Shown one piece after another: positions 1 to 61,105 of a stretch of 64,000 bases of DNA (the stretch's first letter is position 1; every line of letters starts with the position of its first letter). The notes under the pieces are model-generated. The model saw nothing but the letters and a program-made list of their open reading frames with translations. It was not told the DNA's origin and did not search any database. The position numbers and the translations under genes are program-made. This DNA is from Candidatus Rokuibacteriota bacterium (GTDB taxonomy: Bacteria; JAUVQV01; DATDCY01), in contig JANOHV010000007.1 of assembly GCA_031406795.1 (NCBI GenBank), positions 48,574 to 112,573 on the forward strand, given 5' to 3'.

Positions 1-27
1 CATAGGGGCTCCTAACAGTTGAAGTGT

Positions 28-119
28 GTTTCAGCAAATGCTGAAACCACTATAAATACTGAAATTCGCGGGGTCAATAGAGTTTCAGTGATTTGGCATG
101 TTTCAGCGTGTGCTGAAAC
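28..119. repeat. Two copies of the palindromic motif GTTTCAGCA-N2/4-TGCTGAAAC (28-47 and 100-119) plus a half-site GTTTCAGTG (83-91). The same palindrome recurs at 9098-9116.
   Basis: Direct reading: gtttcagcaaatgctgaaac (28-47); gtttcagcgtgtgctgaaac (100-119). Both have perfect 8-9 bp inverted arms. Confidence 0.6.
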
Positions 120-182
120 ACTCATGAAGTCTTTTCTGTCTGAATACTCATGGCAGCCCCACGATTGCGGACCCCTCGATTC

Positions 183-1064
183 TTACGGCAAGGGGAACGT
201 AAGCGGAGTGCAACCGATTCCTCGCCAGAATCCAGCAATGGCGATGATGGTCGCTTCCACTTCCTCAAAGGTGCAACCGTCCTTCGGGATAACGCGGCTC
301 GCCTCGAAAGTGGCTCTTGTGACCGCCCAGTCTTCCATGAAGCTGTCCAATCCGGAGCAATCGACATAACGGGATTCGCAAGCGAGCTGAAACTCTTGGC
401 CCGCGATGGTCCAGAACTCGGTCTTGGAAATCGGTTTGGCCCTGATGATTCTGGTGAGATCGTACAGGTCCTTCACGCGGACGGCTTCCCCCGGCTTCTT
501 CATCTTTGCCCGATAGGCCGGCAGGGTGCTGAGATAGGCGCGGGCCTTTTCGCCGGCGATGCGTTCCAGGGTGTAGGCCCTGATCGGGACACCATCTATG
601 TCCAGGTCAGCGATCGACCGTTCAGACAACTCCTCGGGGGCCGCCACATCGATTTTAACATTCGGCAATCCCCTGCCACCGGCATGTTTGTGGTCGATCA
701 GGGAGACCGCAATGGCAAAGGCGTTCCATTCTCGGGGATGCTGCTTCTCCGGGCTCGACGCGATGCTCAATCTCTTCAGCTCGTACCGCACGGGGTCTTG
801 CGATTCGAAGTGCCGTGAAATAGCTCTCCCTATATGCTCCTCGAGGAAGGCCTTCTGTCCCTCCCTGTCGGGGTGCAGCTTCGCAAAATCCACGTCGAGA
901 TTGGCGTCGATGTCGAGGGACATCCTCGGCGTCCCCAGTCGCCGATTGAGGACCAAGGCCCCCTTGAAGACGAGGCTGTCCCTCAGGTCTCGACTCTTCG
1001 CCAACGCCAGCAGGATGTGGTTGATCGCCTCGAATCGCCATTCTTCCTGCTGAGATGGATTCAT
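183..1064 (-). CDS. abiEii: AbiEii/AbiGii-family nucleotidyltransferase toxin (DUF1814), type IV TA / abortive infection
   Basis: ORF 183..1175, trimmed to the internal ATG at 1064 (MNPSQQ...). Contains the FKGALVL motif (KGGTAL-like), an SLDID acidic motif and ERIAGEKARA typical of AbiEii. Its ATG lies 1 nt after the upstream gene's stop (TGAgATG). Confidence 0.75.
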   Translation of the reverse strand: MNPSQQEEWRFEAINHILLALAKSRDLRDSLVFKGALVLNRRLGTPRMSLDIDANLDVDFAKLHPDREGQKAFLEEHIGRAISRHFESQDPVRYELKRLSIASSPEKQHPREWNAFAIAVSLIDHKHAGGRGLPNVKIDVAAPEELSERSIADLDIDGVPIRAYTLERIAGEKARAYLSTLPAYRAKMKKPGEAVRVKDLYDLTRIIRAKPISKTEFWTIAGQEFQLACESRYVDCSGLDSFMEDWAVTRATFEASRVIPKDGCTFEEVEATIIAIAGFWRGIGCTPLTFPLP

Positions 1065-1065
1065 C

Positions 1066-2043
1066 TCAAGGCACCAGGACTTTCCACTCGGCGATCTCTC
1101 TGGAGTATGGAACCCCGCGCAGAAGGGGAATCCAGGGAGTCTCGGGCTGCTCCAGAACGGTTTTTTTCGTCGCATCGAGATACGAGCCGAGTGCGCCCGT
1201 CGCCGGGATCCCGAGAAGCTCGAAGAGGGCGCCCACCCGCCGCGTCAAAGGCGGAATCTGGATTGCCTTCAGGTAAGCGAGGTAGAGTTCCTCGTCGGTT
1301 GTTCCCGTTTGCCGCTCCCAGGACTCCAGAACCACCTCCGGCCCTCCGCAATGAAAGGGGTATTGCAGCGTATCCAGGAGGGTTTGCTCTATCGTCGCAA
1401 TGTGGATGTTCGTTGCCGGCCCGAGAACCCTCGTCTTGACGCCGGGGATGGATTTCCGGGAACGCTTCGTCGAATAAAAAGGCACACCGCCATAGGAGAA
1501 CACACGCGTCCCAAGTTTCGACCTCGCGGTGCTTCTAGGGGATGTGCTCAACTTCTCCGCGGACTTGGCGACTGACGAAGTTTTGTGTGTGACGAGGGAA
1601 GCGATGTGATGCGACGCGGGGATTTGCGTGGTCAGGTTGTAGTAGGCGAGCGCGCTGAAGTAACAGATCACCCCTTGTGGATCGTATGCCTGAAGCAGCT
1701 CCAGGGGATCGACTTGCAACTCTCGTGACTCCTGGATCCCGAGCAGGATGAAATCCCGCGAGGGACCCGGTCTCGAAACCTCCTCTATCGGGACATGGGA
1801 GGCCAGCCCCATCGAGACCAGGTGCTCGATGATCTTCTTTCCGGTGGGGAAGGTGGAAGGCAGATGCAACTCGCTCGCCGCCTCGCCGATGAGCTGGACG
1901 AGATTCTGCCTGGTGACGCATCGGACTGATGGGAGATCGGGCGTTGGCTGTGCCAGCCTGCCGGTGAGGGCCTTGAGGAATGGCTCCCAATGGGAATCAG
2001 CGAGGATGTCTGGTGTAGCTCTTGGTAAGAGGATTGTGCTCAT
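1066..2043 (-). CDS. abiEi: AbiEi-family antitoxin / transcriptional regulator
   Basis: ORF 1066..2115, trimmed to the ATG at 2043 (MSTILLPR...). ~325 aa, lies immediately upstream of abiEii with the stop and ATG adjacent, the usual AbiE operon arrangement. Confidence 0.65.
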   Translation of the reverse strand: MSTILLPRATPDILADSHWEPFLKALTGRLAQPTPDLPSVRCVTRQNLVQLIGEAASELHLPSTFPTGKKIIEHLVSMGLASHVPIEEVSRPGPSRDFILLGIQESRELQVDPLELLQAYDPQGVICYFSALAYYNLTTQIPASHHIASLVTHKTSSVAKSAEKLSTSPRSTARSKLGTRVFSYGGVPFYSTKRSRKSIPGVKTRVLGPATNIHIATIEQTLLDTLQYPFHCGGPEVVLESWERQTGTTDEELYLAYLKAIQIPPLTRRVGALFELLGIPATGALGSYLDATKKTVLEQPETPWIPLLRGVPYSREIAEWKVLVP

Positions 2044-2059
2044 GGTGTGTCTTTTGATG

Positions 2060-2104
2060 CCCTCCACTTGATACGCTTGCGAAGCAAGCGTATCAAGTGG
2101 AGGG
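2060..2104. repeat. Perfect palindrome: 21-bp arms around a GAA loop (CCCTCCACTTGATACGCTTGC-GAA-GCAAGCGTATCAAGTGGAGGG); its centre is the GCGAAGC mini-hairpin motif
   Basis: Seen directly, 17 bp upstream of the abiEi start. Confidence 0.9.
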
Positions 2105-2189
2105 CATCGCGTCAAGCCAAAAACATTGATGCCATAATATAGACAAATGTCTCATGGAGAAAGATGACGGCAGCTGGATACTCTAGCTA

Positions 2190-2242
2190 GATGAGACCCC
2201 GTTGATAGGCTGGCGAAGCCAGCCTATCAACGGGGTCTCATC
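2190..2242. repeat. Second perfect palindrome: 25-bp arms around a GAA loop (GATGAGACCCCGTTGATAGGCTGGC-GAA-GCCAGCCTATCAACGGGGTCTCATC). Shares the TTGATAsGCTkGC-GAA core with the first.
   Basis: Seen directly. The arms are related to but distinct from those of the 2060-2104 palindrome. Confidence 0.9.
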
Positions 2243-2444
2243 ATGTCAAGCCTAACCCGGCGCGTCCTGCATTTTCAACGGCAGCCTGGTTGGCGTCAGC
2301 CGGCTATGCCGGTGGCGCAGCATCCCTTGGCTTTTTCCTGAGCGGCAGGAACGCGAGGATGATTTCTCTCCGCGCGCGGACCTTACGTCCAACCCTGTCA
2401 AGAAGCCCGAGGCTGACGAGAGCGTTCACATCCCGTCGGCAAGA

Positions 2445-2579
2445 TCACCCAAAGATTAGCGAGATGAGCTGATCCTTGGTGATTTTTCTCTGGTCGGCAA
2501 TGTCGCCGAGCATCGCCGAGAGTGTTCCCACGCGGATCGGGTCATGATTCGGCACCGTGACATGGTGTTCAGGCGCTGA
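2445..2579 (-). pseudogene. HicA-like toxin remnant (C-terminal half only, no start codon, catalytic N-terminal half absent)
   Basis: Minus-strand frame reads ...HHVTVPNHDPIRVGTLSAMLGDIADQRK..., matching the HicA C-terminal pattern TVP-H...GTL..IL. It overlaps the 3' end of the HicB-like gene; there is no upstream ORF for the His-containing N-terminal half. Confidence 0.35.
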
Positions 2580-2775
2580 TCACTTCCTCGCGTACGAAGT
2601 GCAGACGGATAATCCGCGGCTCCTGCCCGGGTTCGAAGTGGCAGTGCACGGCATCACGAACATGGGTATGGAGTTGCTCGACGGAGTCCGCCTCGGTGAA
2701 TATGGATACTCCGAGAGCTCGCGCCTCATAGCCGCCCTCGGAGGATTCCGACACCATGAAAATCAGTTCGTTCAT
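2569..2775 (-). CDS. HicB-like / UPF0150-family antitoxin-like small protein (68 aa)
   Basis: Sequence LIFMVSESSEGGYEARALGVSIFTEADSVEQLHTHVRDAVHCHF resembles the HicB N-terminal domain (..EDGGYVVSVPDLPGCHTQGDTLEEALENAKEAI..). Its start overlaps the hsdS stop. Confidence 0.45.
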   Translation of the reverse strand: MNELIFMVSESSEGGYEARALGVSIFTEADSVEQLHTHVRDAVHCHFEPGQEPRIIRLHFVREEVISA

Positions 2776-4379
2776 CGTCTCCTCCCAATCAATTCGTCAA
2801 TCTTTGCCACAATCCGGTGCTGTTCGGCGATGGGAGGAATTGGGATCCGTACCAACTTTAGATTGGAGGCGCTGATACCCCAATTCCCAACCGTCGTCGC
2901 ACAATAAGTTTCTATGTCTTCACGTACTACTGCTGATTTAGCAAACCATCGAACAAGTTCCGGAAGGACGATCCTTGTAGACAAACGGAGGCGGATAAGC
3001 TTATCCGGAAAGATCTGACGTAAACCCAGGTAGCCGGTGTACAGGGAAAGGCGACCTACAAAGTCTCGATTACCATTGAAACGGCATGCCAGGAGATCAC
3101 CGGGTTTTAGGCTGAATTGCTCCTGGAGTTTGCGAGTTATCCCGCCAATGAGTTTATATTCTTCTTCAGCAACAATTCCGTCTCTTCTGATTGTCCCAGC
3201 GCTAATACGAAGGATCGGAACTCCATTTGTTGCCTCGTCTGGCTTCTTGGAATATCCGTTTCGGGAGTCGTCAAGGAGTATGTCCTCAATCCTGACCCAT
3301 TCCCAACCAGACGGAAGCTGAAGAGGTTGAATCTTCCCACCTTCTTGGGTCACCGATTCCTGACGTATCGCTCGGTCTGCTGATTTTAGTTGATCGTTCG
3401 CTGAACGTGTCCGCCCCAAAAGGGTAGCGACAGGCTCGTTCCTTGAATCCTGGGGGACGAGTTTGCCGCGAACGGCTAGGTTTAGGATGGTTTTGCGGAG
3501 TTGGTGGATGTGTTCGGGACGGGTGGTGAGGCGCGGGAGGTAGTTGAAGTAGAAGCGGGCGCTCTCCTCGAAGGTGGTGGGGGCGCCGGGTGTCTGGGTG
3601 GCGTCGCCGTTGTTCAGGCCGTGGAGAGTTGCCGCCACCAGGCGGTCGCGGCGCTTCTCGCGTTTGGTTTGCGCCGCCTCCAGTTCGTCGCACAGCGCCA
3701 TCAGCTCGTCCACCTTCGCCACGATTCGGCGTTGCTCGGCGAGGGGCGGAAGTGGAATTGCCGCGGCTCTTAGAAGTTTGAAATGGCGACCATACCCACG
3801 GCTGTCCAGTGGCAACCATCTGAGCGCGAGATAGTAAAATTCTGTCAGCACGCCAAGGGGATGAAGGAGTTTCACGCCATCTGCCCCGACTACGAAGTCA
3901 AAGTCGATTAGTTTTGTTTCTCGTGTATGGTCACCAAACAGGATGATCGGCGCATCAACATGGATGACTTTATGCTGATCGTTGCAATAACCCCTGATGA
4001 AAACCTTGCCTTGGTCGACTACAGGGAAAGCACCCGATTCCAAAACATCCTTTGTCTGAACCTTTTTCCCCATGTCCGAGATCAGATATGCTGGAAAAGT
4101 GGCAGGAACCCATTCCCATGTCGGCGGAATCTCGAACGGCATCTCTGATCTTTCAATCGACTCGAACGGCTCTTGGCTTCTGATCTCCCCGGCCTTCACC
4201 AGCTTCGTTTTCTCAGCCTGAATTTGTTTCAGCAACTCCCCCGCCGGCTCATCCTTCGGATCCTGCTCCACGAGCTTTCCGCGCACGGCCAGATCCAGGA
4301 TGAATCTTCGGAGGCGCGGGACGGCCTCGGGGGTGTCGATGAGACGATCGAAATGTTCGAGGAGGCGGGCGGGACTCAT
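2772..4379 (-). CDS. hsdS: Type I restriction-modification specificity subunit HsdS (two target-recognition domains)
   Basis: Long ORF 2772..4793; the real start is ATG 4379 (MSPARLLEHFDRL...), which overlaps the hsdM stop as ATGA. Shows the conserved HsdS repeat LAEQRRIVAKVDELMALCDELE / IAEQHRIVAKIDELIGRRR after each TRD. Confidence 0.85.
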   Translation of the reverse strand: MSPARLLEHFDRLIDTPEAVPRLRRFILDLAVRGKLVEQDPKDEPAGELLKQIQAEKTKLVKAGEIRSQEPFESIERSEMPFEIPPTWEWVPATFPAYLISDMGKKVQTKDVLESGAFPVVDQGKVFIRGYCNDQHKVIHVDAPIILFGDHTRETKLIDFDFVVGADGVKLLHPLGVLTEFYYLALRWLPLDSRGYGRHFKLLRAAAIPLPPLAEQRRIVAKVDELMALCDELEAAQTKREKRRDRLVAATLHGLNNGDATQTPGAPTTFEESARFYFNYLPRLTTRPEHIHQLRKTILNLAVRGKLVPQDSRNEPVATLLGRTRSANDQLKSADRAIRQESVTQEGGKIQPLQLPSGWEWVRIEDILLDDSRNGYSKKPDEATNGVPILRISAGTIRRDGIVAEEEYKLIGGITRKLQEQFSLKPGDLLACRFNGNRDFVGRLSLYTGYLGLRQIFPDKLIRLRLSTRIVLPELVRWFAKSAVVREDIETYCATTVGNWGISASNLKLVRIPIPPIAEQHRIVAKIDELIGRRR

Positions 4380-5815
4380 CGCAGCAGCGCCTGCTCCAGA
4401 ATGGCCTTGAGTTTGTCGCGGAGCTTTGCCGTCGCGGCCTCGCTCTCGTTGAGTTTGGCGAGCAGCTCGGCGGGATCGCCGTGGTCTTCCTCGACGGTGT
4501 GGGGATTCTTGATGTCGAGGTTGTAGCCGCGGGCCTTGATGTCGTCGATCGTGACCTTCCAGGCGATCTCGTTCTTCTCGCGCTTGTCCCACCAGTCGAT
4601 GCAGGGCTTGAAGTGCTCGAAGCGGATCGGCCTGGTCATGGAGTAGGCCTTCTGGCCGTCGGGGACGCGGTGCTCGTAGAACCAGACGGTTTGGGTCGGC
4701 GTCCCCTTCTCGAAGAAGAGCAGGTTGGTGCCGATGGAGGCGTAGGGCTTGAAGACGCTGTTGGGCAGCCGGACGATGGTGTGGAGGTTGCACTCCTCCA
4801 GCAGGTGCTCCTTGAGGCGCGTCTTGACCCCCTCGCCGAAGAGCGTGCCGTCGGGCAAGACCACGGCGGCGCGGCCCTGGGACTTGAGCAGGCGCACGAT
4901 GAGGGCGAGGAAGAGGTCGGCGGTCTCGCGCGTCTGGAACTGCTACGGGAAGTTGCTCTCGATGCCGTCTTCCTCGCGGCCACCGAAGGGGGGATTGGTC
5001 AGGACGATGTCCACCCGGTCGGACTGGGTGTAGCTGGTGTAGGGGCGCGCCAGGGTGTTGTCGTGACGGACGAAGGAGGGGTCCTCGATGCCGTGGAGCA
5101 GCATGTTCGTCACGCAGAGCATGTGCGGGAGCTGTTTCTTCTCGGTGGCGCGCAGGGCTCCCTGCATCTTACGTTCGGCGGCCGGGGTCTTCACGTAGCG
5201 CTCGCGCATGTGGCGGATGGCGCAGGTGAGGAAGCCGCCGGTGCCGCATGCGGGATCGTAGAGGATCTCGCCGGGCTTCGGGTCGATGCGGTCGGCCATG
5301 AAGGCGGTGACGGCGCGCGGGGTGTAGTACTCGCCCGCGTTGCCGGCGCTCTGGAGGTCGGTGAGGACCTGTTCGTAGATGTCGCCGAAGTGCTGACGCT
5401 CGCTGAGGTTGTTGAAGTCGATGCCGTTGATCTTGTTGATCACCTGGCGCATCAGCTGACCGGACTTCATGCAGTTGTAGGCGTCCTCGAAGACGTCGCG
5501 CACGACGCGGCGCCGGCCGTCCCGGGCGACGCCGGAGAGTTCCTTAAGGGTCGGGAAGAGCTTGTCGTTGATGAAGGCGAGCAGCGCATCGCCGGTCAGC
5601 CCCTCGGGGTCGGCGGCCCAGGCGCGCCACTGGAGCTTGGCCGGGATCGGCGAGCGGTAGCCCTTCTGGAGCTGCTCCAGCTCCTGGTCCTGGTCGTCGA
5701 TGATCTTGAGGAAGAACATCCAGCAGAGCTGGGAGATGCGCTGGGCGTCGCCGTCGACGCCGACGTCCTGGCGAATGATGTCCTGGATGGATTTGACGGT
5801 GGTGCGGACGGACAA
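4376..5815 (-). pseudogene. hsdM: Type I R-M N6-adenine methyltransferase HsdM, interrupted by one in-frame amber codon (TAG at 4943-4945)
   Basis: ORFs 4943..5815 (HsdM N-terminal domain, ..TNPPFGGREEDGIESNFP*) and 4376..4897 (..GRAAVVLPDGTLFGEG..) are in the same frame. Reading through the TAG gives FP*QFQTRETADLFLALIVRLLKSQGRAAVVLPDG, a colinear HsdM. TTG start with AAGGAAGAG SD. Confidence 0.7.
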
Positions 5816-5871
5816 GCTGCTTCCCTCGCTCTTCCTTCTTCGGATATTGCCAGGAGTCGACTTTCCCAGGC

Positions 5872-6165
5872 TCAGGCGCGGTCGATCCAGTACGACGGTT
5901 TGCGATGCAAATGCGCTACGGCAACCACAATCAGCGTTTCGCCATCCAGGCCGTTGATCATTCCGTAAGGGAAACGATTTAGCAGACAGCGCCGCAGTCC
6001 AGGATCGATCTCCGGGCAGCCGAGAGGAAAGGTAACCGATCTGCGGATCGCGCGATCGAACTCGTCGAGGAAGTCGTACCCGAGGTTGACTGCCTGCGTA
6101 TTGTACCAGACGAAAGCGTCGTCAAGTTCATGCTGGGCGGCCGCGAGAAGCCGGACTTCATGGAT
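5872..6165 (-). CDS. RelE/ParE-family toxin; lacks a canonical start codon (frame opens with ATC ACC ATC CAT GAA...)
   Basis: Minus-strand frame not in the ORF track: IHEVRLLAAAQHELDDAFVWYNTQAVNLGYDFLDEFDRAIRRSVTFPLGCPEIDPGLRRCLLNRFPYGMINGLDGETLIVVAVAHLHRKPSYWIDRA, a typical ParE/RelE. No ATG/GTG/TTG between the upstream stop and the conserved N-terminus. The listed ORF 5979..6161 is the wrong, S/T-rich frame. Confidence 0.5.
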   Translation of the reverse strand: MHEVRLLAAAQHELDDAFVWYNTQAVNLGYDFLDEFDRAIRRSVTFPLGCPEIDPGLRRCLLNRFPYGMINGLDGETLIVVAVAHLHRKPSYWIDRA

Positions 6166-6379
6166 GGTGATACTTGCCCATCACGGTCTGATAGTCTTCA
6201 GAGGCCGTCCGGCCGCCCAAGTATACGGCCCAGCGCTTGCGGGCTTCATCCGCCCAGATCCGATCAATCTCTGGGTCTGGCTTGTCCAAGTCCGTGAGGA
6301 TCGATTCCACGAGGTGCAACTTCTCCATGTCGGACAACGCACGGATCTCCTCTGCCAATTTCTCAGTTGAAGTCGTCAT
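6158..6379 (-). CDS. Putative addiction-module antitoxin (TIGR02574-like small acidic protein), partner of the ParE/RelE toxin
   Basis: 73 aa, MTTSTEKLAEEIRALSDMEKLHLVESILTDLDKPDPEIDRIWADEARKRW..., overlapping the toxin frame by 8 nt. SD aaggagag upstream. Confidence 0.6.
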   Translation of the reverse strand: MTTSTEKLAEEIRALSDMEKLHLVESILTDLDKPDPEIDRIWADEARKRWAVYLGGRTASEDYQTVMGKYHHP

Positions 6380-6532
6380 TGCGTCTCTCCTTGTTCGCTG
6401 TGTACCTCAATATAATCGAGGCTCCTGCAAATGTCTTGCTTGTGGTTCGACAGGCCCACCACGAACGGGATTATCGCTGAAGAATCAATATTCCGCCGTT
6501 CGCCCTGAGCAAGCGAAGGGTAATAACTATAC

Positions 6533-8997
6533 CTATGCAACGGCGTAGAGGGCGGATTGGAGTTCGTGGACGGCCCGCTCGAAGCCCTCTCGGCCGCCGA
6601 AGCGCCGCAGGAGCTGGACCGGGGTGCCCATGGTATCGAAAGGGGCGATCTTGAGGATCTGCGGGTCGTCGAGATCGGCAATCCCCTGGTCCTGGTACTT
6701 CTGCAGCAGCGCTTCGAGCACGGCGCGGGCCTGTTCGCCGTAGCGGGTGAAAACGTCGCGCTTGCGGACGCTGTCGACGCGCTCGCGCCGGGTGAGCGGC
6801 GGCTGGTCGAAGGCGACGTGGCAGATCAGGTCGAAGGCATCGAGGTCTTTCCCCACCTCGTCCGCGAGCGGCTCCAGCAAGAGACCCTCGTTTTCCAACT
6901 CCTCGATGACCGCTTCCTTGCGCTCGGCGGTGTTCCAGCGCCCGAGGAAGTCATCGAGGCTGGCGAAGTGCTTGCGCAGCGTGCGCTTGGAGTAGTCGCG
7001 GAGGCTCTCGGTGACGAGCTTCCCGTTTTCGTCGAGGTATTCGATGCGCTCGGTAAGGATGCGGACCTCGTGGCCGCGGATGAAGTACTTGGACGGGTGC
7101 TCGTTGGCGTTGCCGGGAGGAAGGCTGATATCAGGAGGCCAGGGCTGGCCGTCGACGATTACTTCGTCGTTGCCCGGTTCGGGCGGAATAGGGTCTTCAT
7201 CATCGACAGGCGGCGGCACATCGTCCGGTGGACTGACCGGATCCCCATCCCCCGGCTCGTAGATCTGCACCGGCTCGCCGTCGAAGTCCGGATCGGCAAA
7301 GTGGTTCGTGGCCTTGCGGAAATCGATCAGCGTGAAATAGAACTTCTTCGTGTCCTCATGCACGCGGGTGCCGCGCCCGACGATCTGCTTGAACTCGGTC
7401 ATGGAGCCGACTTCACGATCGAGCACGATCAGCCGGCAGGTCTGGGCGTCGACGCCGGTGGAGAGCAGCCGCGAGGTGGTGACGATCACCGGAAATCTCG
7501 CTTCAGGGTCGATGAAATTGCCGAGCGCGCCTGGCCCTCGGGGTCGTCGCCCGTGATGCGCATGACGTAGCGCGGGTTCTGGAGCGTCAGGTCCTGGTTT
7601 TCGTTGATCAGCGCCTGACGCATCCGGGCGGCGTGTTCGGTGTCCACGCAGAAGATGATGGTCTTCTGATAGCGATCGCCGCTCTCCCTCAGGAACTCGG
7701 TCACCCGGCGGGCGACGCGCTTCGTGCGCTCGTCGATCACGAGATTGCGGTCGAAATCCTTCTGGTTATAAATCCGGTCTTCAATCTCGTAGCCGTACGT
7801 GTCGGTCTCGCCGCGGGTGGGGCGATAGCCCTCCACATCGACGTCGAAGTGGACCTTCACCGCCTTGTAGGGCGCGAGGAAGCCGTCGCGGATCCCTTCT
7901 CTGAGCGAGTAGGTGTATACCGGTTCGCCGAAGTAGTGGATGTTGGAGACGTATTCGGTCTCTTTCGGCGTGGCGGTGAGACCGATCTGCGTGGCGGAGG
8001 AGAAATGGTCGAGGATCTCGCGCCAAGCGGAATCCGCTGCCGCACTGCCGCGGTGGCATTCGTCGATGACAATGAGGTCGAAGAAATCGGGAGAAAGTTC
8101 GCGGAAGAGCTTCTGGCGCTCCTCCGGGCCGGTGATTGCCTGGTAGAGGGCGAGGTAGATCTCGTAGGAGGTGTCGATGCGCCGCTGCTTGCGATCAACG
8201 GCGGTGGGGAGCCGGACCTCGCTGCCGTCCTCGCGTTCGATGGTCTTCGAGGATGTGCTGAGCTTGGCCATCGCGGCGCCGAAGGGACGGAAGTCGTTGA
8301 CCATCGTCTGGTCGATCAGAACGTTGCGGTCGGCGAGGTAGAGAATGCGCTTTCTGCGGCCGGCCTTCCAGAGGCGCCAGATGATCTGAAAGGCCGTGTA
8401 CGTCTTTCCGGTTCCGGTGGCCATGACGAGGAGGAGGCGATTCTGTCCCGCTGCGATGGCCTCGATGGCCTTGTTGATCGCGATGCGCTGGTAGTATCGC
8501 GGCTCCGTGCCTCCCGGATCCTCGTAGTAATTCTGGAGGACGACCTCCTCCTGGGCTGGTGCGAGGCTCTTCCAAGTTCGATATCTGGACCAAAGCCTTT
8601 CGGGGGAGGGAAAGGCGTCGAGGGAAAGGTTCGTCTCGGTCTGCTCGCCGAGGCCGGTCCGGTCGTGGAAGACAAAGCCGCTGCCGTTGGATGTAAAGAC
8701 GAACGGGATATCGAGGGTAGTCGCGTATTCCAGAGCCTGCTGCATCCCGGCGCCGACGGCGTTGTTGCCGTCCTTGGCCTCGATCAGTGCGAGGGGGATG
8801 TTCGGCTTGTGGTAGAGGATGTAATCGGCCCGTTTGGCCTTGCCCCGGGTGACCAGCTTGCCGCGGACGATGATCCGCCCTTTGGTGAACCCGACCTCCT
8901 CGCGAATCTGGGAATGGACATCCCATCCCGCTTTGACAAGAGCGGGAGTGATGAACTTGGTGCAGATGTCCCGCTCGCTGAGGTCCTTTACGGCCAT
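6533..8997 (-). pseudogene. hsdR: Type I restriction endonuclease subunit HsdR, frameshifted near 7486-7490
   Basis: N-part ORF 7486..8997 has helicase motifs ([19 protein letters not shown]) and ends ..[10 protein letters not shown]-part ORF 6533..7489 (GTG start) continues IVTTSRLLSTGVDAQTC..QIVGRGTR in a different frame (8997-7489 is not a multiple of 3). No slippery site or homopolymer at the junction. Confidence 0.7.
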
Positions 8998-9097
8998 AGA
9001 GCCATATCCACCTCTGTTTTCAATGAGTTCGAGCGATTTTGCGGTCGGGATAACGGACTGTCAAGCAGGAACGCCAACAATTTCATTATTTCTGGCT

Positions 9098-9116
9098 GTT
9101 TCAGCATTTGCTGAAA
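9098..9116. promoter_or_regulatory. Palindrome GTTTCAGCA-TT-TGCTGAAA, ~90 bp upstream of the hsdR start; reverse complement of the 28-47 site
   Basis: Seen directly in the hsdR 5' intergenic region (8998-9163). Confidence 0.5.
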
Positions 9117-9163
9117 TGAAGGTGATGTCTTTTCGAGCCGGATAGCAATGAGGAGCAGGGGGC

Positions 9164-9811
9164 TTACTCGAGAAGCCCGCGCTCCCGGGCCTTGAGCACG
9201 GCCTCGGTTCTCGAGCGCGCCTGGAGCTTGCGGTAGATCTTCCCGACGTGGGTGTGGACCGTGTGGGGGCTCAGCGCGAGCTCAGCCGCCAGTTCCTTCT
9301 CGGGCAGGCCGGTGGCGAGCCGGCGCAGCACGTCGCGCTCGCGCGCGGTGAGTGTCGGGCCCGCGGCCGGTCCCTTCCCCTGGCGCAGCTCTTCGACGAC
9401 GCTGCGCGCCACCCGGGCGGAGAGGGGTGAGCCGCCTGCAGCGGCCGTGCGCACCGCGGCGAGAATATCGACCGCGGAGGAGCCCTTGAGCAGGTAGCCG
9501 CTCGCGCCAGCCCGCAGCGCCGCGAGGAGGTGCTCCCGGTCTTCATGCATCGTCAGCACGACGATCTCGACGAGCGGGAAGTACTCCTTGATGGACCTGA
9601 TGACCTCGAGTCCCGGGAGGTCCGGCAATCCGAGGTCGACAAGGGCAACATTCGGCAAGGTGCGCCGCAGCCCGTCGACGGCCTCGCGGCCGGTGGCGTA
9701 GGCCCCGACGACCTCGATCCCCTCCGTCCCGTGGAACAGCGCGGCCAGGTAGTTCAGGGTCGCGCGGTGGTCCTCGACGATCGCGAGCTTCAGGTTGGTC
9801 TGCACTTTCAT
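9164..9811 (-). CDS. NarL/LuxR-family two-component response regulator (REC + LuxR HTH)
   Basis: ORF 9164..9916, trimmed to MKVQTNLKLAIVEDH (ATG 9811). REC motifs (VDLGLPD, phospho-acceptor Asp) and a C-terminal LuxR HTH (LTARERDVLRRLATGLPEKELAAELALSPHTVHTHVGKIYRKL). Confidence 0.85.
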   Translation of the reverse strand: MKVQTNLKLAIVEDHRATLNYLAALFHGTEGIEVVGAYATGREAVDGLRRTLPNVALVDLGLPDLPGLEVIRSIKEYFPLVEIVVLTMHEDREHLLAALRAGASGYLLKGSSAVDILAAVRTAAAGGSPLSARVARSVVEELRQGKGPAAGPTLTARERDVLRRLATGLPEKELAAELALSPHTVHTHVGKIYRKLQARSRTEAVLKARERGLLE

Positions 9812-10146
9812 CGGGCCGCTTCCTCGGGCAAGGGGTGAACGGCTGTTGTCCCGGGGATTAGACGGCAGCGGGCCGCAGCTGTCAACGGCGCTTGATGGAC
9901 GGCCGACCGGGCTCACCCGCCATCGCCTGGTCAGGTGAGGGGCGCTTCACCTGCTGCGTCAGCATGAAAACGACCGTTGCGGCGCGGTCCCGCGGATGCA
10001 CTGCCGTATTTTCATGGGCCTGGCGGTACGCCGCCCGCGGAACGGGCTCGCGTTCTCCATTGCCGTGCTGCAACCGGAGCCGCCGCCCCGGCGTAACGGA
10101 TGCCGTCAGGGTGTCGTGGTCAACCACCAACGGAGGAGTGCCAGGT

Positions 10147-12906
10147 ATGAAGGCTCGTCGAGGTACGCTTCGCACACTCGTCGCTCTCGCGCTGTTCTGT
10201 TCGCTGCTCGTCGGCGGAGGCGGGCTCGCCCGCGCCGACCTGCAGAGTCCGTGGGTCACCGTGCTCTCCGGAAGGGTCCAGGCCGTGGTCACGACCGCGA
10301 GCGCCGCCCCGGGAGCCCCCCGGGTCGTGTTCGCCGGCACCCCCACTGCTACGCTCAGGAGCGAGGACGGCGGGCTGACCTGGACGCAGGTGCTCGCAAC
10401 GTACACGAGTGCCTTGGCCGCCGACCCGGTCAGCGGCGGCGTCGTCTATGCCGCGACGGCGTCGGGCCTGCAGAAAACCGCCGACTACGGCCTGACCTGG
10501 ACGAACCTCAACCCATCGATCAGGACCAGCATCGCCGTGAGCCCCTTCGACGGCCAGGTGCTCTTCGGCGGCAGCTATCGGAGCACCGACGGCGGCGCGA
10601 CGTGGACGGTGATGTCTGGATTGACGTCAGGGTCCTCGACCCCCCATCTCAGTGCATCGCGGGACCCGGCCAACCCCGGGGACCTGCTCTACTTCACCGG
10701 CAGCGTCCACCGCAGCCTGGACAACGGCCTGAGTTGGACGCCGGTGAACGTCGGGTTCAACGAGGACTCGGCCGCGCTGGACCCGACGGACCCCCGCTAC
10801 TATTACGTCGGCGCCTGCGGCGGCACCATCTTCCGCGCGTTCCCCGGCGGGAGTTCGAGCTCTTCGAATATCGGCGGGCACGTCCACGGGATCGTCGTCG
10901 ACCCGGGGTCCCACAACCGGGTGTACGCGGCGCGCGACTCCGGCGGCGTCATGGTCAGCCAGGACTTCGGCGCGACCTGGGCCTCGTCAGGAACCGGCGC
11001 ACCCTCCGGCGTTGTCGAGAACAGGATGTTCTTCGACGCCGACTCCGGGATCATCTACCTGCCGACCTACGGAGGCCTCTCCGTCAAGAACAGCCGCTGC
11101 TCCGACCTCGACCACGACGGCGCCTCCGCCGAGGGCGGGCTCTGCGGCGCGGTCGACTGCAACGATGCCGACGCGGCGCGCAGCCCGTTCAAGAAGGAGA
11201 ACTGTTTCGACGGGATCGACAACAACTGCACGGAGGCGATAGATTTCGCGGACACCTGGTGCGCCACGATGTGCGTGGACGGCGACGGCGACGGGCACTT
11301 CCCGCTGCTCTGCGGCGGCGACGACACCAAGGACGCCGACGCGACGATCTACCCCGGCGCCCCCGAGCTCTGCGACGACAAGGACAACGACGTCGACTTC
11401 GTGGTGGACGAGGGGTGCACGCGCTACACGTACTATCGCGACTCCGACCTCGACGGCTTCGGCAACCCCGATTACACGACCCTTTCCTCCTTCACCACGC
11501 CGCCTGTCGGCTTTCTCGCAGACAATCGGGACTGCAACGACTGGGATCTGAACACGCACCCGGGGGCCGTGGACTTCTGCGGCGATGCGGCCGACAACGA
11601 CTGCGACGGAACGCCGGACAACGGCTGTCCGACGTTCACGTACTTTGCCGACATGGACGGCGACAGTTTCGGCGATCAGAGTCGGGTGGTCGTGACGACC
11701 GTTACCGATCCCCTCGCCGTCGGGGCGAGCCTGAACAATCTCGACTGCAACGACGCGGCGTACTGGGTCAACCCCGACGCCCTCGAGGAGTGCGACTGGG
11801 TCGACAACAACTGCGACGGGGTCGTCGACGAAGTCTGCGGCCACGCGGCCATGCTCTGGGGCGACAACGCCAAGGGACAGGTCGGCGACGGCACCACGAC
11901 GGACCGCAAGTCCCCGGCGTCGCTGGCCGGGCTCTCCCCGCTCGCGGTTGCCGCCGGCAATCAGCACACGCTGGTCGTCAACAACGACGGCACGGTCTGG
12001 GCCTGGGGAGTCAACGGGAGCGGTCAGCTCGGCGACGGGACGACGACGACGAGGAAAAGCCCGATCAAGGTTTCAGGGATCTCCGGCGTCGCCGCGGTCT
12101 CGGCCGGGCTGAACCACAGCCTGGCGCTCAAGGCCGACGGCACGGTCTGGGCCTGGGGCGCCAACGGCAACGGTCAGCTCGGCGACGGCACGACGACCAC
12201 GAGAAAGACGCCCGTCCAGGTCTTCGGCCTCGCTGGCGTCATCGCCGTGTCGGCGGGCAACTACCACAACCTGGCGCTCAAGAGCGACCAGACGGTCTGG
12301 GCCTGGGGCAGCAACGGCGACGGCCGGCTTGGCGACGGCACGGCGACCACGCGGAAGACGCCGATCCAGGTAATCGACACTCTTGCGGGCTTCGAATACG
12401 CAATCGCGGTCGCTGCCGGCGGGGACTTCAGCCTGGCAATCGATCAGTACGGGTCCGTCTGGTCCTGGGGTAGCAACTGCGCCGGGCAGCTCGGTGACGG
12501 CTCCACGGTCACCAGGAAGAGTCCAGTCATGGTACCCGGCCTCTCCAACGTCGCATGGGGCATTGCCGCGGGCGCGAGCCACGGCCTGGCCATGACTGGC
12601 GAAGGCGTGATGGCGTGGGGGTCGAACGCGAAGGGGCAACTCGGCGACGGCACGACGACGACGCGCAAGACGCCCGTGTTGCTGCCGGAGAGCTACAACA
12701 TCTGGGCGATCGCCGCAGGCGGCAGCCACTCCCTGGCGCTGGGTTGGGTCGGCGATGTCATTGAACTGCAGGCCTGGGGGAGCAACGGTGACGGGCAACT
12801 CGGCGACGGCACCACGACGAACCGGAAGACGCCGGTCGTGGTGCCGGGTCAGAGCGACGCGCTCTTCTTCGCGGCCGGCGGGGCGCACAGCGTTACGTTG
12901 AGATAG
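10147..12906 (+). CDS. Large secreted multidomain protein: signal peptide, BNR/Asp-box (SxDxGxTW) beta-propeller, MopE-like Cys-rich putative metal-binding repeats (C.D.D....E.CDG.DNDCDG), then a 7x RCC1-repeat beta-propeller
   Basis: ORF 9892..12906, start set at ATG 10147 (MKARRGTLRTLVALALFCSLLVGGGGLARA signal peptide). BNR motifs SEDGGLTWTQ, TADYGLTWTN, STDGGATWTV, SLDNGLSWTP, SQDFGATWAS. Repeated CNDxDxxxxPxxxExCxDxxDNDCDG units. RCC1 repeats G(S/A)NxxGQLGDGTTTxRKxP x7. Confidence 0.8.
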   Translation: MKARRGTLRTLVALALFCSLLVGGGGLARADLQSPWVTVLSGRVQAVVTTASAAPGAPRVVFAGTPTATLRSEDGGLTWTQVLATYTSALAADPVSGGVVYAATASGLQKTADYGLTWTNLNPSIRTSIAVSPFDGQVLFGGSYRSTDGGATWTVMSGLTSGSSTPHLSASRDPANPGDLLYFTGSVHRSLDNGLSWTPVNVGFNEDSAALDPTDPRYYYVGACGGTIFRAFPGGSSSSSNIGGHVHGIVVDPGSHNRVYAARDSGGVMVSQDFGATWASSGTGAPSGVVENRMFFDADSGIIYLPTYGGLSVKNSRCSDLDHDGASAEGGLCGAVDCNDADAARSPFKKENCFDGIDNNCTEAIDFADTWCATMCVDGDGDGHFPLLCGGDDTKDADATIYPGAPELCDDKDNDVDFVVDEGCTRYTYYRDSDLDGFGNPDYTTLSSFTTPPVGFLADNRDCNDWDLNTHPGAVDFCGDAADNDCDGTPDNGCPTFTYFADMDGDSFGDQSRVVVTTVTDPLAVGASLNNLDCNDAAYWVNPDALEECDWVDNNCDGVVDEVCGHAAMLWGDNAKGQVGDGTTTDRKSPASLAGLSPLAVAAGNQHTLVVNNDGTVWAWGVNGSGQLGDGTTTTRKSPIKVSGISGVAAVSAGLNHSLALKADGTVWAWGANGNGQLGDGTTTTRKTPVQVFGLAGVIAVSAGNYHNLALKSDQTVWAWGSNGDGRLGDGTATTRKTPIQVIDTLAGFEYAIAVAAGGDFSLAIDQYGSVWSWGSNCAGQLGDGSTVTRKSPVMVPGLSNVAWGIAAGASHGLAMTGEGVMAWGSNAKGQLGDGTTTTRKTPVLLPESYNIWAIAAGGSHSLALGWVGDVIELQAWGSNGDGQLGDGTTTNRKTPVVVPGQSDALFFAAGGAHSVTLR

Positions 12907-13031
12907 CGCACCAGAGGATCGGGATTCCCGGCAGGGGCGCCGACCTTCAGTCGCGAGGTCGGCGCCCCTTTCCGGGGAATCCTGTGGGCAATTCTTGACA
13001 ATGACGGGCCGCGTCCGGAGAATCGCCCGGC

Positions 13032-14501
13032 ATGGCAGGCGGGGAGCTCTTTTCGCAGATCTTCTCCCTCTGTCCCGACGCCATCAACGTCAACCGGCTG
13101 CGGGACGGGGTGTTCCTGGCGGTCAACGAGGGCTTCACCCGGCTGACAGGGTACAGCGAGGAGGACGTCCGGGGGAGATCGGCCCTGGACCTGCAGCTCT
13201 GGGTCAATCCCGAAGACCGCAGCCTGCTGCTCGCCCGGCTGCGGTCGGGCGACGAGGTCGCGGATTTCACGACGGAATTCCGGCTCAAGAGCGGTCTGAC
13301 GAAACCCGGCTCCCTCTCCGCGCGGCTGATCGTCGTCGACGGCGAAGAGTGCCTGCTCAGCTACACCCGCGACATCTCCGAGCGGCAGATGGCCGAGGAT
13401 GCGCTGCGGCAGTACCACGAGGCCGCGTTCATGATCGAGAACGCGCCGATGGGGATCTACATCGCCCAGAACGGCCTGCTCGTCTACGGCAACCAGTGGC
13501 TGCGCGAGTTCTGCGGCATCGCAATGTCCGATCTGCCGCGCGACCCCTTGAGCGTGGTCGTCCCCGAAGACCGTGAGCTCGTCCGCGAGCAGATGGTCAA
13601 GAGGATGCGCGGCGAAGAGTCGCTGCCCCAGTACACCGTACGCCTCCCGAGGAAGGACGGCTCCATCGCGCACGTGGAGCTCATCGCCAAGGTGGTGACC
13701 TATCGTGGCCTGCCGGCGATACAGGGTTCCATCGTGGACATCTCGGCGAAGGTCGCCGCCGAGCAGCGGCTCCGCGAATATGCGGCCGAACTCGAAGAGT
13801 CCAACCAGCTCAAACTGCTCTTCAACGACATCCTGAGCCACGACCTTATGGACCCGCTCTGGGTGGCCACCGGCCAGACGGACCTGCTTGCCGATCGGGT
13901 CTCGCCGGAGCACCGGGATGTGCTGCGGTCGATCCAGGCGGCGCTCGCGGAGGCGAGGGAGATCCTCTCCGACGCCCACGCGTTCCTGCGGCTCAGGGAC
14001 GACGAGGGACTCTCCTTCGCGTCGCTGGACCTCTGCGCGCTGCTCCGCGAGGTCGCGGCGGCTTTCGCGCCGGAGATGGCGCAGCAACGGATCGGCGTCG
14101 ATATGCGCGTCCCGCGGGAACTGCAGGTGGAAGCCAGCCCCGTTTTGCGGCAGGCGTTCTCGAACCTGCTCTCCAACGCCCTCAAGTATGGGCCCGCGGG
14201 TTCGGCGGTGATCGTCGAGGCGCAGGAGGGGCCGCCCGTGCGGGTCGTCTTCCGGAACCGGGGCGAGCGCATTCCCCCGGAATTCCGCGAGCGGGTCTTT
14301 CAGCGCTTCGTCCAGGGGGGCAAGCAAGGCATCAAGGGGGTCGGCCTGGGCCTCGCCATCGTGAGGAGAATCGCGGACCTCCACGGGGGGAGAGCCTGGG
14401 TCGAGGACGACCCGGAGGGCGGGTGCGCCTTCTTCTTCGAGTTCCCGCGCCAGCAGCCGGAAACGGTCGGCGAAAAGGGTCAAGAGTCTCCAGCTGGTTG
14501 A
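13032..14501 (+). CDS. PAS-domain sensor histidine kinase (cytoplasmic; 2 PAS + HisKA + HATPase_c)
   Basis: 489 aa. PAS region at the N-terminus, H-box ILSHDLMDPL, and N/G boxes LSNALKYGP...GVGLGLAIVRRIADLHGG. Confidence 0.85.
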   Translation: MAGGELFSQIFSLCPDAINVNRLRDGVFLAVNEGFTRLTGYSEEDVRGRSALDLQLWVNPEDRSLLLARLRSGDEVADFTTEFRLKSGLTKPGSLSARLIVVDGEECLLSYTRDISERQMAEDALRQYHEAAFMIENAPMGIYIAQNGLLVYGNQWLREFCGIAMSDLPRDPLSVVVPEDRELVREQMVKRMRGEESLPQYTVRLPRKDGSIAHVELIAKVVTYRGLPAIQGSIVDISAKVAAEQRLREYAAELEESNQLKLLFNDILSHDLMDPLWVATGQTDLLADRVSPEHRDVLRSIQAALAEAREILSDAHAFLRLRDDEGLSFASLDLCALLREVAAAFAPEMAQQRIGVDMRVPRELQVEASPVLRQAFSNLLSNALKYGPAGSAVIVEAQEGPPVRVVFRNRGERIPPEFRERVFQRFVQGGKQGIKGVGLGLAIVRRIADLHGGRAWVEDDPEGGCAFFFEFPRQQPETVGEKGQESPAG

Positions 14502-14545
14502 ACACGCCCGCCGACTCGGGGATAAGCCGGCGGCGGCCTGCAGAC

Positions 14546-14914
14546 TTACGGGGGAAGTTCCGATTCGTCCAGTCCGAAGTAGTGGCCGAGTTCGTGGATC
14601 ACGGTCGTGCGCACCTCCGCGACCGCCTCCGCGCGCGTCTCGCAGGCCCAGAGGATCGGCAAGCGGTAGATCGCGATGCGGTCGGGGAGCACGGGGGCGT
14701 CGGGGCCGCGCTCGGGCAGCGGCACCCCCTGGTAGAGGCCGAAGAGGTCGTCCTGTTCCGGGTCGAGCCCGAGCGACTCGAGTTCCTCCGCGGTCGGCTC
14801 CTCCTCGACGACGACGGCGACGTTTTCCATCGCGCGTGCGAATTCCTCGGGCAGTTCGGTGAGCGCCTCCTGCACGAGCTCCCGGAATGCGCGGCGGTTG
14901 ATGCGAATCGGCAT
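14546..14914 (-). CDS. Zincin-like metallopeptidase family protein (DUF1025/PF06262)
   Basis: 122 aa, MPIRINRRAFRELVQEALTELPEEF... with a C-terminal HELGHYFG motif. Convergent with the histidine kinase, divergent from ptsP. Confidence 0.7.
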   Translation of the reverse strand: MPIRINRRAFRELVQEALTELPEEFARAMENVAVVVEEEPTAEELESLGLDPEQDDLFGLYQGVPLPERGPDAPVLPDRIAIYRLPILWACETRAEAVAEVRTTVIHELGHYFGLDESELPP

Positions 14915-14934
14915 GATGTCGGTATAATGCCCGC

Positions 14935-40278: not shown

Positions 40279-40653
40279 TCACTTCTTTCGGTAGTACCTC
40301 ACGTCCGTCAGCCCATCGAAGTGCGCGTCGGTCGTCCAGAGCGTGGCCCGGTATCGGTGCGCGGTGGCGAGGATGACGCTATCGGCGAGCGGAAGCGCGT
40401 GCTGCAGGCCCAGGTCAGCAGCAAAGATCGCCAGCGATTCGTCGAGGGGTGCGAGCCGTCCCTTGCTCATCTGGGCGGCAACTTCAGCCGCCAACTCCTG
40501 ACCGCGCCGACGCTTGATGATCTTGTAGACTTCGAGAAGACAGACGGTCGGCACAAGCAGGGCGCTTGTGTCACAGATCGGTTTGGCGAAAGCTGCCCCG
40601 TGTTGCCCGTCCATCAGGAACTCGATCCAGCCGGAGGAGTCGACGAGGTTCAC
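40279..40653 (-). CDS. vapC: PIN-domain VapC toxin (type II TA)
   Basis: 124 aa. MNLVDSSGWIEFLMDG...LLVPTVCLLEVYKII...DSVILATAHRYRATLWTTDAHF (PIN acidic residues). Stop overlaps the vapB start. Confidence 0.8.
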   Translation of the reverse strand: MNLVDSSGWIEFLMDGQHGAAFAKPICDTSALLVPTVCLLEVYKIIKRRRGQELAAEVAAQMSKGRLAPLDESLAIFAADLGLQHALPLADSVILATAHRYRATLWTTDAHFDGLTDVRYYRKK

Positions 40654-40865
40654 CCGCGATCCTCTTCGTCGGCGTCGCGGTCGAAGTCGAGCGGCACGCC
40701 TTTGAGAATTCCGCGCATCTCCCGGATCGGCCGGTTCGGGACCAGCCGCACCTGGTCGCCGATCGTGACGAGCTGCAGCTTCTGCCCGGGTTTTATCCTG
40801 AGCTGTTCACGGACTTCCCGCGGAATGACGATCTGGTACTTGGACGAGACGGTCACGGCTGCCAT
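40650..40865 (-). CDS. vapB: AbrB/MazE/SpoVT-family antitoxin VapB
   Basis: ORF 40650..41102, trimmed to MAAVTVSSKYQIVIPREVREQLRIKPGQKLQLVTIGDQVRLVP... (ATG 40865; alternative ATG 40877). Swapped-hairpin AbrB fold signature. Confidence 0.7.
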   Translation of the reverse strand: MAAVTVSSKYQIVIPREVREQLRIKPGQKLQLVTIGDQVRLVPNRPIREMRGILKGVPLDFDRDADEEDRG

Positions 40866-40980
40866 AGGCACCTCCATCGATCGATGATTTGTAAGACGAT
40901 GGTACCGGTGCCGGCGGCGAAAGGCAAGGATGCCAGTGCTATCTGGTTTTGCGACTGGGCCGGGCGCGACTGGCTCGGCA

Positions 40981-41310
40981 TCGAAGCGATCAAATCGGCG
41001 CCGACAACGCGAACATCGTCTACCGCCGCGGCGTGGAAGAGCTGCCCACGCGCAAGGAACAAGAAGGGCGTCTTCGCGGGCGGCGATCGACAAGTACCTC
41101 AAGGACGGCGAGTGGTGGGATCCAAACGCGCCGAAGCCCGCCGAGGCGGCCCCGGCGGCGAAGTAACAACGAAACCCGTCGGCCAGATTCCGACGGACCG
41201 TGCAGCGACGGAATCCAATCGCCGTCGTAGGGGCGGGGTTGATCCCCGCCCGCAGGTAACGGACACCAGAGCCCTCCTCCGGCGACGAGCCGGGGGAAGG
41301 TTTTTTTGCC
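40981..41310. repeat. Decayed, internally deleted second copy of the nfnB 3' end plus REP element and terminator (~85-90% identical to 39209-39270, 39578-39605 and 39668-39900)
   Basis: Direct comparison: gcgccgacaacgcgaacatcgtctaccgccgcggcgtggaagagctgccc... / ...tcgacaagtacctcaaggacggcgagtggtgggatccaaacgcgccgaagccc...gcggcgaagtaa...gtcgtaggggcggggttgatccccgcccgc...gccgggggaaggttttttt. Confidence 0.8.
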
Positions 41311-41365
41311 CGTCGGGGAGGCGCCGCTCAGCGGCGTTTGACATGCGTCACGTTACGCATTACAT

Positions 41366-41483
41366 TTGCGTCGTGATCAAGACCTTCGCGGACCGCCACA
41401 CCCTCAATGGCGCATTTGCTTTCGCTTTGCCGCCGGCGATGCGTTCGACGTCGAGATTGCGGATTACCACGAGGAGGGTGTGA
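41366..41483 (+). pseudogene. higB: HigB (RelE-like) toxin remnant: N-terminal ~10 residues joined out of frame to the C-terminal ~25 residues, middle deleted
   Basis: Frame 1 reads VIKTFADRHTLNG (HigB N-terminus, compare MIKSFKHKGLE). An overlapping second frame reads PHPQWRICFRFAAGDAFDVEIADYH (the conserved HigB C-terminus ..W.RICFR...GDAYDVEIVDYH). The whole locus is only ~115 nt; a full HigB is ~92 aa. Confidence 0.5.
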
Positions 41484-41484
41484 C

Positions 41485-41808: not shown

Positions 41809-41812
41809 CGAT

Positions 41813-43304: not shown

Positions 43305-43311
43305 CCGGGGT

Positions 43312-43389: not shown

Positions 43390-43479
43390 AAAGTGGTGGC
43401 ACGATGCTATATTTGCGTTGACGTATAGCGTTCGCTAACAGGGGCTTCGGGCAGTTCTCATCGCTGGAGGAAGCGCATT

Positions 43480-61067: not shown

Positions 61068-61105
61068 TACGCACGAAGAGCTCGAAGCACGGGAGAGGCA
61101 TTACG

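Follow-up and report, generated by a model that had tools for sequence, protein, structure and literature searches.

A chromosomal defence island of ~9 kb containing an EcoEI-type Type I restriction-modification (R-M) operon was identified at positions 183 to 9116 of a 64-kb stretch of contig JANOHV010000007.1 from a Candidatus Rokuibacteriota bacterium. The whole 64-kb stretch is referred to as the window, and all coordinates count from its position 1. The operon is non-functional as written: the frame of hsdM is interrupted by a TAG at codon 291 and that of hsdR by a 1-nt deletion at codon ~491. It is probably a dead operon that was functional until very recently and lies in a decaying defence island, with lesions that are real and fixed in the population. 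The original prediction of a defence/addiction island with an inactivated Type I R-M system and an intact hsdS was borne out. The decay, which it had confined to the R-M genes, has also reached parE, fic and hicA.

The genes for the R, M and S subunits are all present in one locus and are colinear with those of intact relatives. HsdM, HsdR and HsdS, together with the AbiEi, AbiEii and PF09720 components of the same island, were assigned by Pfam and PADLOC matches. The contigs of relatives and the Logan contigs used for comparison carry L-numbers. The three hsd genes are as follows.

6533-8997, minus strand: hsdR pseudogene; one A deleted between 7527 and 7526 (codon ~491)
4376-5815, minus strand: hsdM pseudogene; TTG start; in-frame TAG at 4943-4945 that changes codon 291 from Lys to stop
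2772-4379, minus strand: hsdS, intact, 535 aa; two Pfam Methylase_S domains; PADLOC Specificity_I (E 1.4e-99)

HsdM contains the domains HsdM_N and N6_Mtase. Its gene is otherwise one continuous frame, with the TAG at 4943-4945 as the sole interruption. At the column of the stop, K is found in 107 of 120 homologues and R in nine, and none of the 120 carries a TAG; the frame and this comparison bear out the claim of a single in-frame TAG in a colinear hsdM. The three closest DNA relatives have AAG, AAA and AAG at codon 291, which identifies the change as AAG to TAG. The stop lies 15 residues past the NPPF motif and truncates HsdM after 290 of its 479 residues; the 189 residues lost belong to the catalytic and C-terminal region. 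No homopolymer or repeat tract is present at the TAG site. A search with the repaired HsdM retrieved a strongly conserved 479-aa family, with best matches at 96-97% identity.

HsdR contains the domains HSDR_N, ResIII and EcoEI_R_C, and its gene is present as two open reading frames (ORFs), 7486-8997 and 6533-7489. Compared with two relatives (L003 and L005), one A is missing, GCGCAGCTC being changed to GCGC-GCTC. The resulting premature TGA (7488-7486) is located 37-41 nt downstream of the deletion and cuts HsdR after ~490 of 821 residues. Restoration of one base gives an 821-aa HsdR that has no further stop, is colinear with the intact relatives and is 91% and 90% identical to them. The deletion site, like that of hsdM, is free of homopolymer and repeat tracts. 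The frame switch had earlier been placed at ~7486-7490; the frameshift is real, and those positions correspond to the TGA and the ORF overlap, the lesion itself being at 7526/7527.

The third gene, hsdS, covers full-length specificity-subunit models, and its exact protein is also present in Logan. Its start overlaps the hsdM stop, and its stop overlaps the start of a 68-aa gene, by 4 nt (ATGA) in each case; the open frame and both overlaps verify the description of hsdS as intact and translationally coupled. A scan of 185,579 species genomes gave a best HsdS match of 42-45% identity, and in none of them was the same pair of target-recognition domains found. At the island density of ~0.7 lesions/kb, ~1.1 lesions are expected in the 1.6-kb hsdS and the probability of none is ~0.3, so that the intact state of this gene needs no special explanation. 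HsdS is not known to have any activity in the absence of HsdM. The adjacent 68-aa gene is as follows.

2569-2775, minus strand: 68-aa HicB-like gene, intact; 4-nt overlap with the hsdS stop; conserved 68-aa cluster

The overlap of a HicB-like gene with hsdS, as earlier described, is real, but the HicB label is without a match in Pfam, NCBIfam or PADLOC. The name derives only from the adjacent hicA remnant and from resemblance.

The other damaged genes of the island belong to an inserted toxin-antitoxin (TA) pair and to two short remnants.

5816-6532, minus strand: TA-pair insertion, 717 bp between hsdR and hsdM
6158-6379, minus strand: PF09720 'putative addiction module component' antitoxin, intact, 73 aa; Pfam E 1.9e-09
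5872-6161, minus strand: parE-like toxin pseudogene; ATG at 6161-6159; G missing next to 6156 (codon 3)
2445-2579, minus strand: hicA-like remnant, C-terminal half only; no ATG or TTG start; one internal GTG
2304-2438, minus strand: 3' remnant of fic (Fic/Doc family), last ~38 codons and stop

In the closest relatives, 3 nt are found in place of the 717-bp insertion. The same TA insertion occurs in L086 (JGI 3300028462, contig Ga0307781_129123), the only other case at the hsdR-hsdM junction in a search of 84 loci of this Type I family. The antitoxin gene is located directly upstream of the toxin gene and its TGA (6160-6158) overlaps the toxin ATG (6161-6159), an arrangement shared with L086; the exact antitoxin protein was found in Logan. 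The 96-codon body of the parE-like gene is out of frame with the sole ATG, and no in-frame ATG, GTG or TTG precedes the conserved body. The family comprises 564 relatives at E<=1e-10, with members of 96-101 aa, and the 11 homologues aligned begin MK[VI]R[FL]L where the window has HEVRLL. L086, with the same pair at the same position and 93% DNA identity, has ATGAAGGTCCGG where the window has ATGAA-GTCCGG. The alignment and L086 together indicate the loss of one G in codon 3. The ParE-like product aligns end to end with PF05016 (ParE_toxin) at E 0.033 and 15.2 bits, below the cut-off of 23, and the L086 homologue gives a faint match to the same model. In the ParE-antitoxin pair originally described between hsdM and hsdR, the antitoxin is thus supported by its PF09720 match, but the toxin is frameshifted. 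L086 has an hsdR amber of its own at 1645-1647 (codon 286, CAG to TAG); its parE and hsdM are intact.

The fic gene is intact in L003, where it encodes 383 aa. With this protein as query, tblastn matched residues 336-373 to window 2325-2438 at 84% identity. L087 is 95.9% identical to window 2438-2802, and fic starts there exactly where the homology ends. The two comparisons indicate that ~1 kb of fic was deleted in the window. The hicA remnant has 44 codons with a stop directly upstream and matches positions 32-54 of the 58 positions of HicA_toxin at E 0.011, below the cut-off; a full-length HicA toxin, with a domain of ~58 residues, is not encoded. The same remnant is present in L087, which makes the hicA truncation older than the other lesions.

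Interrupted genes may be bypassed or reversible, and amber read-through (hsdM), programmed frameshifting (hsdR and parE) or phase variation would then allow conditional expression. Two in-frame TAGs in related loci, one in the window hsdM and one in the L086 hsdR, are in favour of this. However, 12 of the 37 window genes end in TAG, among them the gene of the conserved EttA, whose length is normal, and no tRNA gene is present in the window. Stop-codon reassignment or suppression was rejected on these two grounds. The comparison with hsdM and hsdR orthologues that had been proposed as a check gave a sense codon in hsdM and an unbroken frame in hsdR of the relatives. The closest relatives are uninterrupted at all three sites including parE, and no relative shares either hsd lesion. 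The sites show neither a slippery heptamer nor a homopolymer nor a tandem repeat of short units. The earlier view that the hsdR frameshift is unlikely to be programmed, as it lacks a slippery sequence or homopolymer, agrees with these observations. Programmed frameshifting and phase variation were rejected because the relatives are unbroken and such tracts are missing. The locus has a single hsdS, no inverted hsdS repeats were found, and no recombinase was recognised among the island ORFs. Conditional expression of the interrupted genes is hardly credible.

The window comes from one NCBI assembly, and Logan assemblies of three SRA runs with the same organism provided the independent check on whether its lesions are mutations or assembly artefacts. 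The following Logan contigs were aligned.

Window 1-2028: L164, 0 mismatches
Window 2206-4652: L001, 0 mismatches
Window 5740-6814: L002, 1 mismatch
Window 9077-15853: L166, 10 mismatches

Contigs L165, L167 and L168, which are from other runs, showed 0 mismatches. Over ~12.3 kb in total, the Logan sequence and the window show 11 mismatches but not a single indel, and the source assembly therefore has no tendency towards indel errors. The parE deletion (in L002) and the fic junction (in L001) are identical in the Logan contigs of run SRR20217198. In the flanks, the ORF lengths of seven genes agree with those of their syntenic counterparts in L003, and ten large and ten small further ORFs have complete domain coverage or no break. 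EttA has the same length as its homologues and is 95% identical to a protein of a 'Candidatus Methylomirabilia bacterium' metagenome-assembled genome (MAG), the one ground on which the host was judged to be probably Methylomirabilota-like. A GC3 frame plot gave no unexplained frame switch. The ~9-kb island carries three point lesions and the inspected flank genes (7 syntenic, 10 large ORFs, 10 small ORFs) carry none; assuming a uniform spread of errors across the window, all three would fall in the island with a probability of (9/64)^3, or ~0.003.

Several observations weigh against accepting the two hsd lesions as mutations. No retrievable Logan or JGI contig covers 4653-5739 or 6815-8947, and a single NCBI assembly is the sole source for both the amber in hsdM and the deletion in hsdR. 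The 503-aa N-terminal fragment of HsdR is recorded from NCBI only and its intact neighbours from NCBI and Logan; the Logan population could be different there, or the contigs could merely be broken. Other members of the community carry copies of hsdM at 95% identity, and the assembly graph is tangled at the amber. The missing excess of neutral substitutions fits very recent inactivation and two base-call errors alike. Exact look-ups of the hsd fragment proteins found nothing, and guessed Logan partial proteins (one, then ten more, covering intact and broken versions with contig overlaps of 30 or 31 nt) were not in the collection. A 26-mer specific to the amber had 0 matches in metagenome contigs, and a 19-mer for the hsdR deletion had 76 matches, none of them in hsdR. 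Further Logan contigs end at 9077, 9094 and 8948, all short of the hsdR lesion.

An assembly artefact in hsdM, hsdR or both (consensus error, minority allele or strain chimera), with the R-M system intact in the living population, is an unlikely explanation. It is favoured by the fact that neither hsd lesion is visible in a second assembly and by the breaks of Logan contigs on both sides of hsdM and within hsdR, which point to strain or paralogue complexity. Between run SRR20217198 and the window there are 11 single-nucleotide polymorphisms in ~12 kb, so that more than one strain exists; relaxed selection is seen in neither gene. Several broken loci of the survey described below are from MAGs labelled MFD, a long-read based project, and broken hsd genes in MAGs may therefore sometimes be artefacts. 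On the other side, the ~12.3-kb cross-assembly comparison contains no indel, the 1-nt parE and 1-kb fic deletions of the same island were independently reproduced, and the flanking genes inspected are without a frameshift. Both indels lie outside homopolymer runs of >=3 bases, and a chimera of relatives cannot yield a TAG that 0 of 120 homologues carry. The alternative of assembly errors, which had been raised in the original prediction, is therefore weakened by the Logan agreement and the parE and fic replication, although the hsd lesions themselves have no covering contig. It is likely that both hsd lesions are real mutations.

On the hsdR side, L003 (JGI 3300044712, contig Ga0453684_0002543) is syntenic with the window at 82-89% DNA identity and contains an intact hsdR-hsdM-hsdS. 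The synteny and the intact system make the R-M system look inherited and not freshly acquired. The ratio of nonsynonymous to synonymous divergence (dN/dS) between the window and intact relatives is 0.09-0.18 for hsdM and 0.08-0.10 for hsdR, and the ratios between intact relatives are 0.10 and 0.12, respectively. At columns conserved at 95-97% or more, HsdM has 2 odd substitutions versus a median of 1 in intact homologues, and HsdR has 3 versus a median of 4. Pairwise dN/dS and conserved-column counts gave no signal of relaxed selection, a result that cannot separate very recent inactivation from an artefact. The comparison is consistent with hsd genes that were under constraint until very recently and were inactivated very late on the time scale set by their 5-13% DNA divergence from the relatives. 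The earlier notion of a recent relic is supported by dN/dS values like those of intact relatives and by the lack of excess odd substitutions.

Synonymous divergence (dS) from the same relatives is 0.11-0.16 in hsdM and 0.50-0.55 in hsdR, that is, 3-5x lower in hsdM. This suggests that hsdM may have been exchanged or converted between lineages in recent times.

Restriction requires an R2M2S1 complex and methylation requires M and S (PMC11411939). It follows from this requirement that a cell with an hsdM null is already negative for restriction and modification (r-m-) and that the null is harmless, so that a second hit can be neutral whichever lesion came first. The decay of the operon may accordingly be described by a simple model in which one hit would remove selection and the rest of the decay would be ordinary mutation. 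HsdM being needed for both methylation and restriction, the cell would be r-m- for this specificity, and hsdS would be a functionless passenger that by chance has not yet been hit. The cell would be left with an orphan PF09720 antitoxin, an orphan HicB-like gene and a potentially active AbiE pair.

The lesions may instead be real but selected, through relief from self-restriction or toxin leakiness or through an opening to incoming DNA, with the antitoxins and hsdS kept as anti-addiction genes or as a spare specificity. This is distinctly unlikely. Everything broken or lost is of the effector type (hsdR, parE, fic and hicA) plus hsdM, whereas all genes of the antitoxin or regulator type (PF09720, HicB-like, abiEi and hsdS) are open. 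L086, with the same TA insertion, has an independent hsdR amber, and the probability that the other 3.9 kb stayed untouched at ~0.7 lesions/kb is ~0.07. However, the pattern was spotted after the fact in a small sample, the toxin AbiEii is intact and HsdM is not toxic. The hicA truncation shared with L087 predates the other lesions, and restriction is already abolished by the hsdM null, given the R2M2S1 requirement (PMC11411939). For the last reason, the original suggestion that two independent lesions point to selection against restriction or methylation does not follow.

The genes still open in the island are hsdS, the PF09720 antitoxin gene, the HicB-like gene, abiEi and abiEii. The last two form an adjacent pair.

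1066-2043, minus strand: abiEi, intact, 325 aa; PADLOC AbiEi (E 2.7e-17); stop 1 nt before the abiEii ATG
183-1064, minus strand: abiEii, intact, 293 aa; Pfam PF08843 (E 2.6e-20); PADLOC AbiEii (E 9e-15)

The genes abiEi and abiEii encode the antitoxin/regulator and the nucleotidyltransferase toxin, respectively, of a Type IV TA or abortive-infection pair. Both products are colinear with their L005 homologues, at 84% (AbiEi) and 75% (AbiEii) amino acid identity, and Logan contigs L164 and L165 contain AbiEii with 100% identity. No Pfam or NCBIfam match was obtained for AbiEi. The presence of AbiEi/AbiEii in the locus, as first described, is upheld by Pfam, PADLOC and the colinearity with L005. 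Judged from these gene models, AbiE is probably the sole island module still able to act.

Two kinds of repeated element were identified in the island and at its edges.

2056-2108 and 2190-2242: two perfect palindromes upstream of the abiEi start (2043); 25-nt arms, 3-nt spacer
14-67 and 80-133: ~55-nt repeat, two inverted copies between the abiEii stop and the next minus-strand gene (ATG at 3-1)
9079-9131: ~55-nt repeat, third copy; the hsdR ATG follows ~100 nt downstream

The palindromes share a TTGATA-GCT-GC core within 2056-2242, and Logan contigs break there. Autoregulation by AbiEi acts through inverted repeats, and by analogy the palindromes are probably AbiEi operator or autoregulation sites. 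RptR has the operator TAGCTA (PMC12255303). The island palindromes bear no relation to this sequence, and RptR-type control of the island was rejected.

Behind the palindromic core of the ~55-nt repeat unit, TGTTTCAGC-N4-GCTGAAACA, comes a third TGAAA half-site, ACTGAAAT. The core has 6 strand-matches at 3 sites in the window, with 0 expected by chance. The unit is also found at L003 7400-7455, ~100 nt upstream of hsdR, and at L004 ~150-205. The L003 homology stops at 9117, the outer edge of the right repeat, where Logan L166 also ends; the two left copies precede the next minus-strand gene by 25-120 nt. The repeat thus brackets the island and could be an operator or a recombination site. A further, quite improbable reading is that it represents a hitherto undescribed type of cis-element, specific to the defence islands of this lineage, either a shared operator or a site for the recombination of cassettes. 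In the operator version, one regulator could control the hsd operon and the next gene. If true, a cassette-swap site would fit the effector-biased decay, with the old cassette silenced and the antitoxins kept as anti-addiction genes.

Every gene of the island is on the minus strand. From 9116 to 183 the order is hsdR, the PF09720 antitoxin gene, the ParE-like frame, hsdM, hsdS, the 68-aa gene, the two short remnants (2579-2304), abiEi and abiEii. The GC content is 53-64% in the island versus 66-72% in the flank. To the left of the window, L164 (2026-2715, continuing from window position 3) encodes a 229-aa protein with no Pfam match and a possible winged-helix C-terminal half. Beyond this gene, L164 contains housekeeping-looking genes (histone deacetylase family, CBS and ADP-forming acetyl-CoA synthetase), which places the left end of the island within one gene of abiEii. 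On the other side, a 5.4-kb segment (9118-14570) adjoins the outer edge of the right repeat and is not present in the otherwise syntenic L003, which has 142 nt there. Encoded on it are a LuxR-type response regulator and a PAS histidine kinase, together with a 1004-aa ORF that has RCC1 repeats and a MopE metal-binding motif.

A second patch of TA-type genes is located at 40279-46400, with a lower GC content (56-65%) and full-length domain matches throughout.

40279-41102: PIN/MazE-type pair
41407-42664: HTH gene and RlaP
43014-43304: MNT-type nucleotidyltransferase
45972-46400: PIN gene

At 61000-63000 the GC content falls to 50-55% and the coding signal is weak.

A survey of 80 GTDB loci of this Type I family (L006-L085), ~66 of them complete, showed hsdM and/or hsdR to be broken in ~8 of the ~66 complete loci. 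Unrelated genes of 550-1300 nt occupy the hsdR-hsdM junction in ~16 of the 66, and this junction appears to be an insertion hot spot. Judged by sequence resemblance, the junction genes may encode GxxExxY, HNH, PD-(D/E)XK, DUF559 and PIN-like proteins.

The locus is a new instance of a familiar kind of decay. Loss through small mutations is a common fate of such genes, and current understanding is unchanged. In the annotation, hsdM, hsdR and parE should be given as pseudogenes and fic and hicA as remnants; neither an active Type I system nor an active ParDE-like pair should be recorded, and a count of defence systems for this genome should credit AbiE only. The locus provides a clean, datable example of the rapid death of a vertically inherited R-M system, with a syntenic intact orthologue for comparison, and one more data point for the hsdR-hsdM junction of this Type I family as a frequent landing place for small accessory modules.

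The operon resembles the EcoEI/EcoAI Type I systems, whose HsdR has the PF08463 (EcoEI_R_C) tail, in its gene order hsdR-hsdM-hsdS, its overlapping stop and start codons and its domains. It differs from them in the interrupted hsdM and hsdR and in a target-recognition domain pair with <=45% identity elsewhere. In the SsuPORF652P system of Streptococcus suis, hsdM is frameshifted in some lineages and the R subunit is truncated in others (PMC5198162). The window is similar in that the system is kept with independent lesions in M and R, whereas here both lesions are found in one genome of an uncultured environmental lineage known from sequence alone. Two-gene modules between hsd genes have also been described, namely DarTG2 between hsdS and hsdR in enteropathogenic Escherichia coli (EPEC) (PMC12255303) and TgvAB inside the Type I cluster of Vibrio cholerae VPI-2 (PMC11411939). 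The module in the window is, unlike these, a PF09720-antitoxin/ParE-like pair with a frameshifted toxin, found on one other retrievable contig, L086. The adjacent open abiEi and abiEii, with the expected domains and with large palindromes upstream of abiEi, correspond to an AbiE Type IV TA system, whereas AbiEi of the window differs from the reference in its length of 325 aa and in matching no Pfam model.

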